Part shown: piece by piece, positions 1 to 59,888 of the stretch
How the letters are laid out: each line of letters opens with the position of its first letter
Position numbering within the stretch: position 1 is the first letter of the stretch
Source of the DNA: a virus
Taxonomy: Duplodnaviria > Caudoviricetes
Length of the DNA stretch: 64,000 nucleotides
Direction: 5' to 3' (one strand)
Virus record (IMG/VR): IMGVR_UViG_3300035499_000517
Location: 1-64,000 of that record
Made by a program: the position numbers and the translations under genes
The notes under the pieces: generated by a model
Seen by the model: only the letters and a program-made list of their open reading frames with translations
Told to the model about the DNA's origin: nothing
Databases searched by the model: none

Positions 1-3000
1 TGGAGATAAGCCCGCTGCACCAACGGCAAATTTAGCAACTGCCATGGAGCTATCCGTTACCGCCTTATAAGCTACGGAAGATGCCACAATAGCATCGCGA
101 GCCACGCTGGAAGCTGCCACCGCATTCATAGCCACGCTGGAAGCTGCAATAGCCGTCATTGAAGTTGCCGTTGCTGTTACTGCGTTCATGCCAACTTCAC
201 TGGCTGCTAAGACTTCCATATCTGCGTAGTCATTCGGTAATAATCCTGCTTCACCGACTGCATACTTCGCTGTTGCAATGCTACTTGCGTTCATTGCCTC
301 AAATTCGATATCGGAAGAAGCCATTGCTTTACGTGCTTCTGCATTTGACATTACAATATCCATTGCTTCTACACTATTTACAAGGTCACTTACGTCAGCA
401 TAATCTCTCGGGTCCAGACCACCATTTGCCACAGTGAACTTGATTGTACCAACCGGGCTATCCTCGATTGCCTGGAATGCAACGCTATTTGCTGTTACAG
501 TTTTTCTTGCAGTATCATCTGCTGCAAGATCATCGATGTCTTCGTAATCACCCGGGTTTAATCCTGCTTCTGCTGCTGCAAATTTTGCAACACCAATAGA
601 GGAATACGTCATTGCCTTATACGCATCGGTGTTCTTTACGATCTCTCCACGGATGGTTGCACTTGATGCGACAACATCCATATTTGCGTAATCATTAACG
701 TCATGATTTAAGAAGCCGATGATAAGTTTACCAACAGCGACGTAATCATTGATAAATGTCATATAAGTATCTTCTGCTTCAGCACTCTTTAAGATGTCTC
801 TTGCAGTGCTTGATACAGATACTTGATTTACAGCATTTGCATCATTTAAGACATCTGTAATATTCTGATAACTGCCTGTAATAAGCCCAGCACAGCCAAT
901 CATGAATTTTGAGATTGCCATTTCATTTGCTGCAATTGCTTTATAAATAGCACTGTTTGCAACAATTGCTGTTCTTGCTGTAGAAGATGCTCCCATAAGA
1001 TCCATTGCAACAGTTGAAGCAGCAAGCTCATAACCAGATGCAGTTGTCTTACAAACGGTTGTTAACGCAGTAGTGTTTCCAATAATTGCATTCACTGCAA
1101 GCTCTGATTCTGCAAGTTCTTTCATACCAGTATAAGATTTTGCAGCGGTTGCAATTGCCGTAGAAGACTCTACAAGAGCTTTCATACCAACACTAGATTG
1201 TCCACATTCGTACATGGCTGCTTTTGCATCGGTCATTAAACCAAGTGCAGTTGTATTTGCAATGATTGCAGCCATAGAAGTTGCAGAACCAACAAGTTCT
1301 TTCATACTTACATTAGATTTTACAGCGGTAGCAAATGCATCATTACTAACAAGAAGTGCGACTGATGTAGAGTTATCTCTGATTAAATCCAAGAAACTTG
1401 TTGCATAGATTGCAAAATGTAAGAGCGCGCTGTTATTCATAAGCGCATTGATCCATGCTGTCGTTCCGATTGCTGTATTTAAGTCACTATAACTGGTATC
1501 AGATAGGTTCATGACTTTGTTAAGGAACTTTCGCGTACATACTTCATCAGCGCCTAACATCAGTAATGAGTTCTCTGTGTTGTAGATGTCTGCTCTCTTA
1601 TCAGCGTCTGCAATCAAGATGCTTTCGTAATTATCAATGATATCAATCATCGCCTGTACGAATACATCATGACTTAATGCGATAGGGTAAGTCCTTCTGT
1701 CCGCTGACAATGCTGTTGCAGGCTGTGTTCTCTTTACAATCTGCTCAGAGAATGTCTTGTTCTTTGCAGCAGCATCCACAAAGTTTGTATTCCCAAGAAT
1801 GCTTACCAGATAATCATCATTTCCACAAATGGTATCAATGACATTCTGTGTAAGCTTCGTGTAATCCTGAACATCCTCAAGATCTTTTGCTCTTTGGTTT
1901 ACATCATCCAAAGTACTCTGCATCTGATTTCTTAAGGGTTCGTAATTATAAAGATTTTCTGCCTTCTCTGCGATAGATGAAAATGCCTCTGCAACTTCTG
2001 CAAGTGCATCTGTAGAGTCCTGAATCTCTGCAATGAAGTCAACCATGACTTTACATGCATCTTCGCTTTCTCCAACGATCGATAAACAGCTTTCTGTTGT
2101 TAAGATCTGCTTTGCAAATTCGCTGTTCTGCATGAGAATTGCTAAGCAAGTATCCGGGTTGTCTCTCATATATTCACAGCATTCCGTGCTGGTTACCGCG
2201 ATCTTAACGAGTTCCGGCTTATCGTTAAATGCACCAAGTGCATTATTCTGGCAGATATAAGAGATTGATGCGTTAAACTTCTCATGTACTTCATCATCAT
2301 TTGTAATGACTTCCGGTGTTAAGAGATTTGCATTAATCATCATATTAAGTGTCTCAGTCGGAATCGATGTTCCGGTTGGTTGTTTTGTTTCTTTTGTATA
2401 CTGCACACCATTTTCATCATAGTAGGTCCCGTCAGTGCTGTTGTAAATGGTGAGATATGCAGTGTTTACGATCTCGTCAATAAACCACGATGACATGCAT
2501 ACATTGCTCATGAATGGATCCGATGTCAAAAGCGTTGTCCAACCATCCTGTGATTCAATTGCCGCTGACAACGAACCGTACTCTGATAAGTCCAGATTAA
2601 AACGGTCCTTAATCCAATCCAAGCAATCATCTGCATGAATTCTTTCTGTTATATAATTCGTAAACGGTTTGAAAAACTTATCCGGAAGTGCATGAATAGC
2701 GTCCATGTTCATGTATTCTACAATGCTATTCAAATTTCCAGCAGAGAATGCTGTCGTTCCCGATAAGATATTTAAGATCTTTCCAGCTTTCGGATGCTTT
2801 CTTAAGATGTAATCAGCATCGTCTTCTGTAAAACGGTCATAGATTTTATCTACAACACCCTGGTGTGTCCACACCATAGTGGACTTCATCAATAATTCAT
2901 GGAATAAGTCTTCGTTCGCCGGCTTCATAATGTAACTCTCTGAACCGAGACGCTCAATGGAATCAATGTAGTTCAAGTAATTGAGCGGTTCATTTTTGAA

Positions 3001-3036
3001 GTCAGTATTTAAGAATTTTAATTCTTCAAATCCCAT
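1..3036 (-). CDS. Large Ala-rich repeat protein, probable virion/tail structural protein (3' end outside window, >1012 aa)
   Basis: Not in ORF track. ATG at 3036 (MGFEELKFLNTDFKNEPLNY...) behind a GAGGAAGG RBS; no stop found in the parts of the frame I translated down to base 1. The distal part has ~10-aa repeats (AMxAIAASSV) and recurring KFAxxxAGLxPxDY units. Late-type promoter at 3265-3277. Confidence 0.85.
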   Translation of the reverse strand, partial: MGFEELKFLNTDFKNEPLNYLNYIDSIERLGSESYIMKPANEDLFHELLMKSTMVWTHQGVVDKIYDRFTEDDADYILRKHPKAGKILNILSGTTAFSAGNLNSIVEYMNMDAIHALPDKFFKPFTNYITERIHADDCLDWIKDRFNLDLSEYGSLSAAIESQDGWTTLLTSDPFMSNVCMSSWFIDEIVNTAYLTIYNSTDGTYYDENGVQYTKETKQPTGTSIPTETLNMMINANLLTPEVITNDDEVHEKFNASISYICQNNALGAFNDKPELVKIAVTSTECCEYMRDNPDTCLAILMQNSEFAKQILTTESCLSIVGESEDACKVMVDFIAEIQDSTDALAEVAEAFSSIAEKAENLYNYEPLRNQMQSTLDDVNQRAKDLEDVQDYTKLTQNVIDTICGNDDYLVSILGNTNFVDAAAKNKTFSEQIVKRTQPATALSADRRTYPIALSHDVFVQAMIDIIDNYESILIADADKRADIYNTENSLLMLGADEVCTRKFLNKVMNLSDTSYSDLNTAIGTTAWINALMNNSALLHFAIYATSFLDLIRDNSTSVALLVSNDAFATAVKSNVSMKELVGSATSMAAIIANTTALGLMTDAKAAMYECGQSSVGMKALVESSTAIATAAKSYTGMKELAESELAVNAIIGNTTALTTVCKTTASGYELAASTVAMDLMGASSTARTAIVANSAIYKAIAANEMAISKFMIGCAGLITGSYQNITDVLNDANAVNQVSVSSTARDILKSAEAEDTYMTFINDYVAVGKLIIGFLNHDVNDYANMDVVASSATIRGEIVKNTDAYKAMTYSSIGVAKFAAAEAGLNPGDYEDIDDLAADDTARKTVTANSVAFQAIEDSPVGTIKFTVANGGLDPRDYADVSDLVNSVEAMDIVMSNAEARKAMASSDIEFEAMNASSIATAKYAVGEAGLLPNDYADMEVLAASEVGMNAVTATATSMTAIAASSVAMNAVAASSVARDAIVASSVAYKAVTDSSMAVAKFAVGAAGLSP

Positions 3037-3264
3037 TCTTTTCTTTCACCTTCCTCTCTATTAGAATCCAAGTCTCCCTTTCGGATAGAGATGCTATTCC
3101 CTCATAGCAAAGGATACCAAATCCTTTTTCTTTTTCCCTTTCTTAGGGCATATTATCCGAAAGAGCTATTTGTCATTAGACCTCTAATGTGTCCTTATTT
3201 GTATTTTTGAACCCTTGAAAATAACACGAATAATGTCTCTTAGGTCCAATAATGAGGACTAGTC

Positions 3265-3277
3265 TTATGGCATTGTT
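3265..3277 (-). promoter_or_regulatory. Late-type promoter AACA-N6-TAA
   Basis: Minus strand AACA-ATGCCA-TAA; same motif as at more than 12 other intergenic sites. Confidence 0.65.
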
Positions 3278-3298
3278 TCCTTACAAAATACCCAAGAA

Positions 3299-3311
3299 AA
3301 CATTATTGTAA
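3299..3311 (+). promoter_or_regulatory. Late-type promoter AACA-N6-TAA
   Basis: AACA-TTATTG-TAA ~30 nt upstream of the fibre gene. Confidence 0.7.
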
Positions 3312-3340
3312 GCAAATTATTAGAAAGGAGACGAAATTCT

Positions 3341-4720
3341 ATGCCTAAAGAAGTTGATATAATTGGCTTGACCAGTGTCTCAGATACTGGGGAAGAGTCA
3401 CAAGCATATATGAAAGGCTTAGCGCAGGCGACGGATGTTTATCCCTTTGAATCTGGTGATTTATCATTACCCGGAGAGAATAAAACAACGCTTGATAAAG
3501 TCTTAGAAAATATCCGGGCATATCTGGAAAATCTGGATACATTGGCAAAAGAAAAGCGTTCTATCAGTGATGATACCGCTGATAACAGCTCTGTAAATGT
3601 TGCTAGTACGAAGGCAGTAGCAAGTGTAAAGGCACTTGTCGATGCGCTCAATACAGATCTTGCATCGAATTCGACTGAAGTAATTAAGCGTGCACCAATT
3701 GACCATTCGTCTGAGGATAAGACTTATGGTGGTGCTACTGCTTCATTATATGGTCATGTAAAGCTGTCTGATGGATATGTCCTTGGTTCAAGTGAGCAGG
3801 CTGCAGCGGCCGATAGTATTGCAGCGTCCAAGAAAGCCCTTGCAACGGTTTATAAAACCTTAAATGAAGCAAAGGCAGCGGTTGCTCATGCAGCAACTGA
3901 TACGACTTATGGTGCTGGTAGTTCTACGAAGTATGGACATGTAAAAGTATCTGATACCTACAAAACAGCGATCACAAATGGTGATGCTGACAATGGTGTT
4001 GCAGCATCTCAGAAGGCGCTTTATAATGCATACAATGAACTGTCTACTAATACCGAGACAGGCATTGCATCAAAAGCACCAATCATGCATGCATCATCAG
4101 CAGATACCTATGGTGTTGGTACAGGTTCGGCTTATGGTCATCTTAAAATTTCTGATACGTATTCTGGAGATGATGTTGCAAAGACTGGTGCGGCAGCAAA
4201 TGGAATTGCTGCATCATTATACGCAGTAAATCGTGCGGCAGCGGCTGCACAGACGAACATGGAAGCTTCTCTTGAGGAAGGGCATGCAAAAGAACATGCA
4301 ACCTCAGAGAAATCAAGTCACGTAACATTGAGTGACGATTACGAAACAGGTGCTGGAAATGCCGATTCCGGTGTTGGTGCATCGAGCAATGCAGTTGCCG
4401 ATGCGTACAGTTCCTTATCAAAATCTATTACTACGCTGCAAAATAGTCTTGCGGCACTTAACAACCAAATGGTTCAGGAATCGTCGGTCACCACATTTGA
4501 GGATGATGGTTCAATTGTTGTCACAACTGCAACAACGAAAAAGACCACAACATTTTTAGATGATGGAAATATCGATGCTGTGCTTGAAATCACAAACTCT
4601 GATGGAAGCACAACTATCGTTGATCAGTTGACGAAGTTCAATGATGATGGATCCATTGAGAATGTTGTTACAACCGAGATTAAGGAAGCAGCTACTGAAG
4701 CAACTTCTGAGGAAGGTTAA
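3341..4720 (+). CDS. Tail fibre-like protein with YGHVKLSD repeats
   Basis: Four ~60-aa units HxxxxxTYGxxxxxxYGHVK(L/V/I)SD...AAS..A (last one degenerate), typical of Firmicute phage fibre repeats; C-terminal TxFxDDGxI x3; RBS AAGGAG. Confidence 0.7.
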   Translation: MPKEVDIIGLTSVSDTGEESQAYMKGLAQATDVYPFESGDLSLPGENKTTLDKVLENIRAYLENLDTLAKEKRSISDDTADNSSVNVASTKAVASVKALVDALNTDLASNSTEVIKRAPIDHSSEDKTYGGATASLYGHVKLSDGYVLGSSEQAAAADSIAASKKALATVYKTLNEAKAAVAHAATDTTYGAGSSTKYGHVKVSDTYKTAITNGDADNGVAASQKALYNAYNELSTNTETGIASKAPIMHASSADTYGVGTGSAYGHLKISDTYSGDDVAKTGAAANGIAASLYAVNRAAAAAQTNMEASLEEGHAKEHATSEKSSHVTLSDDYETGAGNADSGVGASSNAVADAYSSLSKSITTLQNSLAALNNQMVQESSVTTFEDDGSIVVTTATTKKTTTFLDDGNIDAVLEITNSDGSTTIVDQLTKFNDDGSIENVVTTEIKEAATEATSEEG

Positions 4721-27087: not shown

Positions 27088-27417
27088 TTATTTTACTCTT
27101 TCAATTTCCTTTAAACAAAACTCTGCATTTCTACGGAGTGCCTCTAACTCAGTAGTTACCGGTAAATAGTTTCTGTCATTTATGACCAACTCAGAAAGTC
27201 TATCATAAATCTCTGTGATCTGCCCGATAATGTTTTCCATAGATGCTGCAGCCTTCTCAACATCACGATCCATATCCTGAATGAGGAATTCATCCTGTTC
27301 TAATAAGGAAAGTGCTGCTGATGCATGACGGTTTCCATCATTTTCTGCTTTTCTTAAAAGACAACGAACTTCACTATATGTTGCATTACTTATTCGTCTT
27401 GTGTCCATCACTCTCAT
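27088..27417 (-). CDS. Hypothetical coiled-coil protein
   Basis: 109 aa, GGAGGA RBS. Confidence 0.8.
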   Translation of the reverse strand: MRVMDTRRISNATYSEVRCLLRKAENDGNRHASAALSLLEQDEFLIQDMDRDVEKAAASMENIIGQITEIYDRLSELVINDRNYLPVTTELEALRRNAEFCLKEIERVK

Positions 27418-48124: not shown

Positions 48125-48298
48125 TTCAATAAATGGAGAGGTAGTTCATATCTCTCCATTTGTATTTCCTCAAATTTCACTTATATAATATTTTCGTGAT
48201 GTAAGAGAAGAAAGATGAACTCTACATCAAAAAACTAAGGGTCAAAATTTATATGATCCTAAAACAAATTTATCACATTTCAAAGGAGGAAATGAATT

Positions 48299-48565
48299 AT
48301 GACACTCAAAACAGAATTAGCAGATAAGCAGACAGTAGAAAACGTACTTGTTCAATCACTCAACCTTATTACCGGGCTTGAAACTCATATAGTTGACTGG
48401 CCGACATTTAGGGATGCACTGTATCCTCAGTATGAGACAGCATATGAAATTACACAGGATAGAGTATCTTACGGGGATTACTTTAGTAAGTTTAGATTGA
48501 ATGATACTGCTAAGCAGTTCCTTGATCAGTACAATGCTTGTGATAAGCTTTACAACAATCGTTAA
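48299..48565 (+). CDS. Hypothetical early protein
   Basis: 88 aa, AAGGAGG RBS. Confidence 0.8.
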   Translation: MTLKTELADKQTVENVLVQSLNLITGLETHIVDWPTFRDALYPQYETAYEITQDRVSYGDYFSKFRLNDTAKQFLDQYNACDKLYNNR

Positions 48566-48608
48566 AAAAATGAATATACCAAAATGGTTAAAAAGGAGGA
48601 AATGAATT

Positions 48609-49100
48609 ATGAGTAACTTTTTCGGAACAATCGCAGCAGCTATTAGTGAGGGTATTGAGGAAGGTAGATTAGAAGCACAGAGAAGAGCGGCAGAGAAAGC
48701 TGAGTATCAGGCTCGTCTTGACAAGGTGACAGCTGAGATGGACGTTATCGTCAATGAGGGTGTTCGTCGCGGATTCATCAAGAGAAAAGCTGTAGCTTAT
48801 CACTTCTGTCCGGAGCTGAAGCGTCAGGAGTCTGAGCTTGTGCAGGAGAAGATTAAGAACTGCTATAAGGAGAGTAGCAATACCACTACTACTTCAACTC
48901 GTTCACAGTTTGATCTTCTGTTAAATCCGGATAGCAAGTACGAAGGTATGAAGTTCGCTACCGGAATTCAGGCAGACAACTTCATGGAGGGCCTTGGTTA
49001 TAAGGTTAAATCCTTTAGCTATCAGGTTCATCTGTATAGCAAGGGAACTGACACAGCTGTTGCTCAGAGAGAGGGCACCAACTATGTGCTTCATTTCTAA
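48609..49100 (+). CDS. Hypothetical early protein
   Basis: 163 aa, AAGGAGG RBS. Confidence 0.85.
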   Translation: MSNFFGTIAAAISEGIEEGRLEAQRRAAEKAEYQARLDKVTAEMDVIVNEGVRRGFIKRKAVAYHFCPELKRQESELVQEKIKNCYKESSNTTTTSTRSQFDLLLNPDSKYEGMKFATGIQADNFMEGLGYKVKSFSYQVHLYSKGTDTAVAQREGTNYVLHF

Positions 49101-58214: not shown

Positions 58215-58294
58215 TAGAGAGAAGCAAGATGTCTTTACGATGTCTTGCTTCTTTTACACCCTTGGACATTAACTTAAAGAAAGGAGTGAGCATT

Positions 58295-59557
58295 ATGCAG
58301 CAGAATACTTCATATTTTGATTTAGACGAACACCGTCTGAATTATATGTCCGTAATGGCAAGTAGTGCGCATACTTATGGAAACTTGCTTGCAACAGTAC
58401 AGAAGTGGTTTCTGGATATTTTTCCGGATAACTTTTTTAAGACGATTCATGTAAGCTCAAGAATCGCCCATAAACAGATATTATCAACACCAACCCAATT
58501 CTTAAAGAAATCAAAACCAATGATTATCTTTCGTCCAAGAATTGATTACAACGAGGATACATTCTTAGGGAAAACGATGTTTGTTGAGAGAATGGGTGGA
58601 GGACCAATCAATAGTCAGTCTCCAGGAACTGTAGATTTGAATCCCTTCTTATTTGATCCAGAAAGGAATTTAGAGGTACAATTCTCTCAGACAAGAAGGA
58701 TTATGTACATGGATATTACGATGGTATTTTCTACACTAATCCAACAGCTTAATTATATGGATTTCTTAAGAACACAATTTGTTCCGGGGAGACCATTTGA
58801 TATTGATACACACTTGGAAGCATATTTACCAAATACTTTTATGGAAACGCTTGGAAATTTAGCAGGGGTTCCAGTACATCAGAAAGATGGGTCAGTTGGG
58901 GATTTCTTAGATTATTTGAATGGACATTCCTATTTCCCAGTTACTTATAAGCTTGCTGGAGAAACAGGAAAAGAAGAGTTCTATCGGTATTATCCGGCAA
59001 AGATTTTTACTATCTTACAGGATTTGGATAAGGATGATGGAGAATCAACGAATCAGGTAATGACATCATACCGAATTACCTTATCTCTCAAACTAGAGTT
59101 CTGGTCTCCGTCTATCACGTATCTTTTTTCTCCACATATCAAGGAAATACCGAAGATGGAGATTCCAACGGATTCCACATTGATTCCAATTTATGCAGAT
59201 ATTTTTGACTTTGATGATTTGGAGTTAAACCCTGGATGGAGTGTGTATTCACATGCATCTTATCGACTGGATAAACCAAACGATTCAGTTGATATCAAAC
59301 CGATCTTAAAGCAATCAATTATACAGGCGATCGATTATCACATTTCAAATCATATTCCGCTTGTAAACTTGATTGATATCAGGGTAAGAAAACAGGGAGA
59401 TTTATTGTTGGAAGGATCAGATTATTCCATTGATTATGAAAAGAAAGTGGTGCAGTTTTATAACCATGATTATGGTTATTACACATACACAATTGTGATT
59501 ACTGTTGATACTCAGTATATCAACCAGCTCATTAAAGATGTCTTTCATTTAGAGTGA
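58295..59557 (+). CDS. Putative virion structural protein
   Basis: Start moved to ATG 58295 (AAGGAG RBS); GACA-TTAACT-TAA late motif at 58265-58277. Confidence 0.65.
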   Translation: MQQNTSYFDLDEHRLNYMSVMASSAHTYGNLLATVQKWFLDIFPDNFFKTIHVSSRIAHKQILSTPTQFLKKSKPMIIFRPRIDYNEDTFLGKTMFVERMGGGPINSQSPGTVDLNPFLFDPERNLEVQFSQTRRIMYMDITMVFSTLIQQLNYMDFLRTQFVPGRPFDIDTHLEAYLPNTFMETLGNLAGVPVHQKDGSVGDFLDYLNGHSYFPVTYKLAGETGKEEFYRYYPAKIFTILQDLDKDDGESTNQVMTSYRITLSLKLEFWSPSITYLFSPHIKEIPKMEIPTDSTLIPIYADIFDFDDLELNPGWSVYSHASYRLDKPNDSVDIKPILKQSIIQAIDYHISNHIPLVNLIDIRVRKQGDLLLEGSDYSIDYEKKVVQFYNHDYGYYTYTIVITVDTQYINQLIKDVFHLE

Positions 59558-59558
59558 C

Positions 59559-59817
59559 AAAAGAAAGAAGGTAGAGGTTTGCACATTCCTCTACCTTCTT
59601 CTAAGCCCGGTGCGCGAATTATAGCAAAAGATTCTATTTCACACGTTCAAAAAATTAACTGTTTAGGAGGGTTTTCATCATGAGTAATTAGGTTGTCCAA
59701 CAGGAGACAACTTTTCGGACACTTTACCATATCATGAATCATTCAAAAAACTACATGAAAAATCAATGTACCAGAGTCAAACTAACTAATACAAAAAGGA
59801 AATAAGCTCCGGGCTTT
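59559..59817 (-). ncRNA. Candidate structured late non-coding RNA
   Basis: Late promoter 59816-59828 (minus); terminal stem AAGCCCGGAGC / GCACCGGGCTT; internal hairpins; ends in terminator 59559-59601; no sizeable ORF. Confidence 0.55.
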
Positions 59818-59888
59818 AACTTTTTGTTATCGCTTTATATTTTAGGTAAAACTGAAAATTAACGAGGAATTAGAAAGGATTTGATTCG

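Follow-up and report, generated by a model that had tools for sequence, protein, structure and literature searches.

Small RNAs of Firmicutes such as RsaE/RoxS and Staphylococcus aureus RNAIII are independent transcription units, each closed by an intrinsic terminator. Pairing with G-rich Shine–Dalgarno (SD) sequences takes place through exposed C-rich motifs, which are in many cases located in apical loops and may be present in more than one copy. RNAIII is in addition long, contains many hairpins and has a 5′ region that pairs with its 3′ region. In bacteriophage T4, mRNAs of one temporal class are inactivated by the RegB protein, whose point of attack is the GGAG in the SD sequence. To our knowledge, little is known of regulatory RNAs in virulent phages, and no such RNA has been described for the AR9/PBS1 group; a search of the literature likewise returned no description of RNAs of the kind considered here in AR9-like phages.

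The late promoters of AR9 follow the consensus AACA-(6N)-TA/G, the last base of which is the start site (PMC5312081). Two late start sites revealed by dRNA-seq, 75478(−) with 3757 reads and 115851(+) with 278 reads, are listed as “antisense” (PMC5312081, Table S3). Inspection of the AR9 sequence showed that both of them head ORF-less intergenic RNAs of ~85 nt that have a terminator in common with a convergent gene. Each RNA consists of an unpaired 5′ C-rich stretch, UGUCCUCCUGU or ACCCCUCA (containing CCUCC or CCCCUC), followed by the terminator. The 115851 unit and AR9 SbcC are on opposite strands, the former being two genes upstream of the latter. We consider the two RNAs candidate sRNAs. 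Since their 5′ ends have been mapped, the class of late C-rich RNAs, so far unnamed, has dRNA-seq support in a cultured relative of the phage described below. A third AR9 start site, antisense to g251 (213250), was considered as an analogue and rejected, being non-consensus, internal and weak.

The DNA analyzed here, a stretch of 64,000 nucleotides (hereafter, the window), comes from an uncultured AR9-like jumbo phage of the gut with a GC content of ~35%. Genes of a split multisubunit RNA polymerase are present in the window, as judged by PHROG matches. DNA and protein searches of a cultured-phage collection revealed no close relative; the nearest cultured phages by protein homologues, all of them distant, are AR9, PBS1, Listeria phage LPJP1, Staphylococcus jumbo phages and phiR1-37, all of the uracil-DNA group. 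A 331-bp gap (59558–59888) separates a gene coding for a 442-aa protein from an SbcC-like gene, both on the plus strand. The 442-aa protein belongs to phrog_21946, to which no function is assigned; AR9 g251 and phiR1-37 g272 (“structural protein”) are its distant homologues. Hundreds of homologues of the 442-aa protein, with 40–71% identity, were found in metagenomes, and the order 442-aa gene, gap, SbcC-like gene is kept in relatives, with gaps of 250–790 bp. The initial annotation of the window placed in this gap an ORF-less minus-strand unit with a late promoter at one end and a terminator at the other, the RNA of which has paired ends. Our analysis supports such a unit, and the promoter, hairpins, palindromes, repeats, CCTCCT sequence and U-tract terminator on which the proposal was based were all found at the positions given for them.

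The late motif had been described as pointing into the gene-free gap, with 59817 as position +1, in agreement with the AR9 late consensus (PMC5312081). The predicted start site is an A followed by a second A (TAA), as in all 29 distinct promoter sequences collected from relatives. The bare pattern AACA-N6-T[AG] is frequent, with 55 matches in the window, and for either strand of a gap as long as this one the expectation is ~0.12 matches. Among 12 copies of the motif in intergenic positions, ~10 are located 6–59 nt upstream of a same-strand gene start. The intergenic copies have an extended form, aaaAACAnnnn(t/g)tTAa(a/g), in common, and AACA-N6-TW is depleted across the whole window (87 observed vs. 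119 ± 12 expected), consistent with selection against stray late promoters. Because of its placement before same-strand genes, its common extended form and its genome-wide depletion, we conclude that AACA-N6-TA is a genuine promoter class in the source phage.

The copy of the motif in the gap is among the few intergenic copies without a nearby same-strand downstream gene, the nearest one being ~23 kb away. A comparable gap is found in 37 loci of relatives, and every one of them has a late motif on the minus strand, ~55–95 nt from the SbcC-like start. Among the 29 distinct promoter sequences (those of L111 and L112 included; relatives’ loci are referred to by such numbers), 26 have N6 and 3 have N7 spacing, and the sequence flanking the promoter differs among them. 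A promoter scan detected no σ70 promoter on the minus strand within the gap. Elsewhere in the window, another late promoter at 3266–3277(−) is found 230 nt before the start of minus-strand gene 1–3036, within 3037–3340 (−), and the long leader of this gene may itself be structured.

The RNA predicted to arise from the gap promoter begins with AAAGCCCGGAGC, and its features are listed in Table 1. The pairing of the 5′ end with a segment just before the terminator, already proposed in the initial annotation, is recovered in both MFE and centroid folds as a GC-rich 8-bp helix between RNA nt 2–9 and nt 207–214. The terminator hairpin and its U-tract (59601–59557) follow immediately after the 3′ strand of this helix and contribute ~21 kcal/mol to the fold; a simple terminator scan missed the hairpin because its loop is 10 nt long. 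Since U-rich tracts are present on both strands, the terminator is considered to be shared with the convergent 442-aa gene, whose transcription it probably also ends. The RNA further contains two TCATGA sequences, a TACAT/ATGTA pair, two copies of TTTTTTGAA, as well as TTTTTCAT and ATTTCCTTTTT, the latter in the unpaired pyrimidine-rich 5′ segment, which is a possible weaker second seed.

Table 1. Coordinates of the predicted RNA gene, its neighbors and the AR9 RNA units. Positions refer to the window unless a locus is named.
Feature	Position	Strand	Remarks
AR9-type late promoter, AACA-AAAAGT-TA	59817..59828	−	AACA 59828–59825, N6 AAAAGT, T 59818, A 59817
Predicted non-coding RNA, ~255 nt	59560..59817	−	3′ end placed within the U-tract by prediction
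Closing helix P1, 5′ strand (AAGCCCGG)	59809..59816	−	MFE and centroid folds
Closing helix P1, 3′ strand (CCGGGCUU)	59604..59611	−	Directly 5′ of the terminator
Terminator hairpin, 14-bp stem, 10-nt loop	59564..59601	−	Followed by CUUUUGU (minus strand) or UUCUUCU (plus strand)
CCUCCU anti-SD motif	59665..59670	−	Like the 16S 3′ tail; predicted unpaired probability 0.87
GUGUCCGAAAA box with UGUCCG core	59712..59722	−	Core common to the closest relatives
GUUGUC/GACAAC hairpin	59692..59711	−	Centroid structures
Unpaired pyrimidine-rich 5′ segment (UUAUUUCCUUUUU)	59792..59804	−	Not conserved as such
442-aa gene	58229..59557	+	420 aa from M23; phrog_21946; convergent with the RNA; synteny anchor
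SbcC/SMC-like ATPase gene, 860 aa	59889..62471	+	Divergent from the RNA; synteny anchor
AR9 RNA units	L115:1095–1179 and L056:2618–2706	−	AR9 record ~75394–75478 and 115851–115939

When compared with shuffled sequences, the body of the RNA gave z = −1.6 without the terminator and z = −3.2 with it, and the opposite (plus) strand of the window folded about as well (z = −2.4). In the window alone, the features are thus only marginally beyond chance, and their significance comes from relatives. The putative RNA gene is kept at the same spot in over a dozen diverged relatives, many of which carry the promoter, the end-pairing, the terminator and a CCUCC sequence at this locus. To evaluate the pairing of RNA ends, duplex energies were compared in an all-against-all matrix of 16 lineages. 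In 10 of them, the duplex of cognate 5′ and 3′ ends (−15.7 to −22.3 kcal/mol) was the best in its row and column, while non-cognate ends gave −7.3 kcal/mol on average (sd 2.9; permutation p < 1e-4). The duplex of the window itself amounts to −19.0 kcal/mol and is the best in its own row and column against the 15 other lineages.

The paired sequences are GCCCGG/CCGGGC in the window, AACGGC/GCCGUU in L001, GCGCUCGGG/CCCGAGCGC in L014 and CUUCCGGG/CCCGGAAG in L016; end helices of 13–16 bp are found in L054 and L010, and within-clade variants L008, L011 and L013 maintain the pairing via G-U. This pattern indicates that the ends of the predicted RNA co-evolve. In the six most distant lineages (39–52% protein identity), the promoter and the terminator remain and the end-pairing is not distinct.

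RNAalifold, applied to three sub-lineages, yielded 76 pairs, of which 21 show compensatory changes. A 4-bp hairpin covaries in relatives (GCAG/CUGC, GUAG/CUAC and ACAG/CUGU); this RCAG/CUGY hairpin is absent from the window RNA. A MAFFT alignment of all close-clade RNAs was left out of the covariation analysis because the conserved boxes were misaligned in it. Three RNA bodies of relatives had z values of −4.2, −3.7 and −3.8, and none of 200 shuffled sequences was as stable. Relatives’ RNAs are 150–390 nt long and have a closed-end multi-hairpin shape. Their bodies evolve fast: the length changes, the CCUCC moves or is duplicated, and whole hairpins are lost.

The gaps of L026–L032, L047 and L048 (40–42% identity) are 735–790 bp long (~2734–3500) and contain two late-promoter motifs and two CCUCC sequences; they may encode two tandem RNAs or one long RNA. 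The SbcC-like gene is in two pieces (190 + 643 aa) in L013 (4150–6257) and whole (860 aa) in the near-identical L012 (4151–6257), which could be due to a frameshift or to an assembly error. In L033, a segment upstream of the homologue of the 442-aa gene, at 188–322 (+), matches a group I intron with a sub-threshold score (32.4 bits, E = 1.7e-4). No gap was found beside the SbcC or g251 homologues of AR9 and LPJP1, and a scan of viral contigs with the 15-mer AAAGTGTCCGNAAAAG returned 53 chance matches, none of them in the right context.

One can ask whether the gap is regulatory DNA that yields no functional RNA at all, i.e., a bidirectional terminator for the 442-aa gene next to a divergent promoter region for the SbcC-like gene, with the late transcript being a by-product or an insulator of no particular sequence. 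The terminator is indeed U-rich on both sides, the fold of the window is not significant by itself, and a sequence like the AR9 early promoter core, TATATTTT, is present at 59836–59843(+), between the minus-strand late motif and the SbcC-like start. The RNA unit and the SbcC-like gene may accordingly be transcribed divergently, from back-to-back promoters of different classes. However, this explanation leaves without a cause the co-evolution of ends located 150–300 nt apart, the fold z values of relatives, which are near −4, the ~11-fold excess of CCUCC with zero GGAGG described below and the retention of a 250–430-bp gap in compact genomes of lineages down to ~40% protein identity. We consider it improbable. 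On the evidence of comparative sequence analysis, the gap very probably houses a real, conserved late non-coding RNA gene.

Coding potential of the gap was inspected on both strands. There is no conserved ORF on either of them, the ORFs being short and unrelated between lineages. A gene for a small protein, a type I toxin–antitoxin pair or the remnant of a decayed gene could be suggested by a 31-aa minus-strand ORF (59647–59742) and a 34-aa plus-strand ORF in the window and by a 67-aa plus-strand ORF called in L020. Yet the sense-strand ORFs of the compared lineages differ entirely from one another and none is preceded by an SD sequence, while the L020 ORF is frameshifted in the sister locus L023. 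A protein-coding gap was rejected, since no frame with a start codon and an SD is conserved. Decay of a plus-strand gene, which the initial annotation had named as an outcome that would speak against an RNA, is likewise disfavored: no conserved ORF was found, and the promoter and the paired ends are kept, whereas a decaying remnant would not retain a promoter, paired ends and one pentamer. We regard a small protein gene, a toxin–antitoxin pair or a remnant as the least probable of all explanations.

The functional strand could also be the plus strand, on which the complement of CCUCC, GGAGG, would be the SD of a mini-ORF or of a leader peptide, or else a stand-by or decoy site for ribosomes, within an RNA reading through from the 442-aa gene. 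The window has AGGAGG-N9-ATG followed by a 3-codon ORF on this strand and the L001 group has a 14-codon ORF, and the plus strand of the window folds as well as the minus strand. However, GGAGG is followed by a start codon in some lineages only: no start codon at SD spacing is present in L006, L012, L050, L010, L014, L054 and L030, and the peptides, 3 to 38 aa long, are unrelated. No conserved plus-strand promoter follows the terminator, while the minus-strand late motif is found in every locus. Several helices would need A-C pairs on the plus strand in place of G-U (P1 in L054 and L111, a hairpin in L012 and L052).

Fold energies point weakly in the same direction. On average over 21 sequences, the sense strand was predicted to be more stable by 3.8 kcal/mol (Wilcoxon p = 0.03, with rows that are non-independent). 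The terminators look bidirectional, and the assignment of the predicted RNA to the minus strand rests mainly on the promoter. Taken together, a function of the plus strand appears highly improbable, and a functionless by-product, a plus-strand element and a peptide gene are each unlikely.

Inside the predicted RNA, CCUCC is the single widely conserved feature. It occurs 15 times in 16 lineages vs. 1.36 occurrences expected from composition (~11-fold), with no GGAGG at all on that strand; the lineages have common ancestry, so that such motif counts overstate independence. The pentamer is kept in 14 of 16 lineages and is also present in L111 and L112. It is often part of ACCUCCUU or ACCUCCU(U/A), which is identical to the 3′ tail of 16S rRNA. 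Its predicted unpaired probability is mostly 0.7–1.0 across lineages, and in L010, L014 and L054 it makes up the apical loop of a hairpin predicted to be stable. The relative position of CCUCC drifts from 31% to 82% along the RNA, and two copies are found in L012, L112 and L030. Such drift in position and copy number is what would be expected of a seed rather than of a structural core.

The initial annotation had described the segment around CCUCC as complementary to a whole translation initiation region, ribosome-binding site and start codon included. The anti-SD part of this claim holds, given the excess of a mostly unpaired CCUCC, but the anti-start-codon part is not conserved: a CAU at SD-like spacing is confined to the window and the L001 group, with L006, L012, L050, L010, L014 and L054 lacking it. 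Two other segments to which the same role had been ascribed, UUUUUCAU and AUUUCCUUUUU, did not recur in relatives’ sequences inspected by eye. A second box is confined to the closest relatives: its UGUCCG core is restricted to those whose 442-aa protein is at least 66% identical (L001 group, L006, L012, L050, L052 and L112). That the late non-coding RNA acts through an anti-SD seed, occluding GGAGG-type ribosome-binding sites, is suggested by the behavior of CCUCC and is put forward tentatively, at somewhat less than even odds.

Potential targets were evaluated by calculating duplex energies with 56 start regions in the window. The lowest values were obtained for 27088–27417(−), 48609 and 62652 (−23.0, −22.8 and −21.5 kcal/mol, respectively). 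Gene 48609, which had been singled out as a specific match, came second, and the two-part match is about what any AGGAGG-N9-ATGAG start region would give. It was rejected as a distinctive target, since 27417(−) is equal or better and the pairing is of a generic SD-plus-AUGAG type. The small neighboring genes starting at 48300 and 48609 have an identical 20-nt start region, aaggaggaaatgaattatga, at 48281–48300 and 48593–48612, as if they had been duplicated in tandem or a leader had been copied.

The proposal that early genes are silenced selectively was not supported either: genes with a late promoter have SDs of the GGAGG type no less often than others do (2/9 vs. 13/47, p = 1.0). It follows that a global anti-SD RNA would hit the late messages of the phage itself as well. 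Genes directly behind a late promoter favor an AGAAAGG-type ribosome-binding site (6/9 vs. 9/47 for the others, Fisher p = 0.008); these counts are rough, with gene starts taken from the longest ORFs (examples are 3341, 12777(−), 29484 and 40536).

The main rival of an mRNA-pairing RNA is a real late non-coding RNA that does not pair with mRNAs and is instead a protein-binding, decoy or scaffold RNA. It could be, for example, an imitation of the 3′ tail of 16S rRNA, titrating either some factor or a host nuclease that acts on this tail, an RNA bound to the phage RNAP, or a virion or packaging RNA like the pRNA of phi29. The closed-end multi-hairpin shape and the size of 150–390 nt, larger than that of typical sRNAs consisting of a seed and a terminator, would fit such a role. 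So would the frequent extension of the motif to ACCUCCUU, the same as in the 16S tail, the UGUCCG box, which is kept in the closest clade without an obvious SD logic, and the fact that no specific mRNA target stood out among the 56 start regions.

Comparison with known families, the Infernal search against Rfam that the initial annotation had called for, argues the other way. No relevant match to Rfam 15 covariance models was obtained in the window gap at E ≤ 10 or in the loci of 12 relatives at E ≤ 1. A match to Termite-leu (26.8 bits vs. a threshold of 51) was rejected as being the terminator hairpin. ARAGORN detected no tRNA or tmRNA. Neither covariance models nor ARAGORN gave a match to 6S RNA, SRP RNA, RNase P, Y RNA, phi29 pRNA or tmRNA in the window and the 12 relatives, and models of RsaE/RoxS, RNAIII and other named sRNA families of Rfam 15 did not match in the same set. 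The fast-evolving body is also atypical of RNAs that dock on a protein surface, and the AR9 analogues consist of a 5′ C-rich tail and a terminator only. We consider a protein-binding, decoy or scaffold role unlikely, if clearly less so than any of the other alternatives to mRNA pairing.

The best explanation as a whole, to which we assign a probability of roughly 45%, is a late non-coding RNA gene whose product pairs with GGAGG-type ribosome-binding sites. From the architecture and the conservation of the gene, which were established in silico, we infer its transcription, its timing, its mode of base-pairing and its targets as follows. The RNA would be transcribed late in infection by the non-virion RNA polymerase, from the minus-strand AACA-N6-TA promoter, and transcription would stop at the hairpin held in common with the convergent 442-aa gene. 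The 5′ end would pair with the segment before the terminator and close a multi-hairpin body, probably as protection from exonucleases. The single-stranded (A)CCUCCU(A/U) would then pair with ribosome-binding sites of the GGAGG type in mRNAs of the phage or the host. Such pairing would block 30S binding and may also expose the mRNAs to RNases. In its design, the RNA would be reminiscent of Firmicutes RNAs, namely RsaE/RoxS with their C-rich seeds or RNAIII with its hairpin loops.

A broader and rather doubtful hypothesis is that AR9-like jumbo phages, both cultured and uncultured ones, use late RNAs that copy the anti-SD tail of 16S rRNA to sequester the GGAGG sites of host messages and of earlier phage messages, sparing late messages with AGAAAGG-type sites. 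If true, translation would be reprogrammed late in infection by RNAs copying the 16S tail, an RNA-based counterpart of T4 RegB. In a stranger and speculative variant, the RNA would imitate the 16S tail as a decoy and shield ribosomes from a host defense nuclease. If the RNA masks ribosome-binding sites, the phage would possess its own RNA-level switch for translation late in infection, a hypothesis that is directly testable in AR9 growing on Bacillus subtilis. In uncultured jumbo phages, such genes can be annotated by a signature that combines a late promoter, the lack of an ORF, a single-stranded C-rich stretch and a terminator that also serves a convergent gene.

The AR9 units at 75478 and 115851 resemble the window RNA gene in having an AACA-N6-TA late promoter, in being ORF-less and convergent with the upstream gene, and in carrying an unpaired C-rich stretch. 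They differ from it in their length of ~85 nt and in consisting of a 5′ tail and a terminator, with no closing helix or multi-hairpin body. No similarity to the window RNA was seen beyond the C-rich motif when the sequences were compared without alignment, and AR9 lacks the synteny of 442-aa gene, gap and SbcC-like gene. With phi29 pRNA, 6S RNA, SRP RNA, Y RNA and tmRNA, the predicted RNA has in common a helix closing the 5′ and 3′ ends, a size of 150–400 nt and the character of a stable non-coding product, but its body is too variable for an RNA of this kind.

Judging from its sequence and predicted folds, the RNA probably represents a novel type of phage regulator whose role is to mask ribosome-binding sites, and the C-rich, SD-targeting RsaE/RoxS and RNAIII are the kind of RNA that it probably works like. 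They differ from it in being host-encoded and stress- or quorum-regulated and in having CCCC/UCCC seeds, whereas the seed of the window RNA would be CCUCCU. With T4 RegB the analogy is functional only: RegB is an early protein nuclease, while the window RNA would be a late RNA that occludes the sites to which it pairs.
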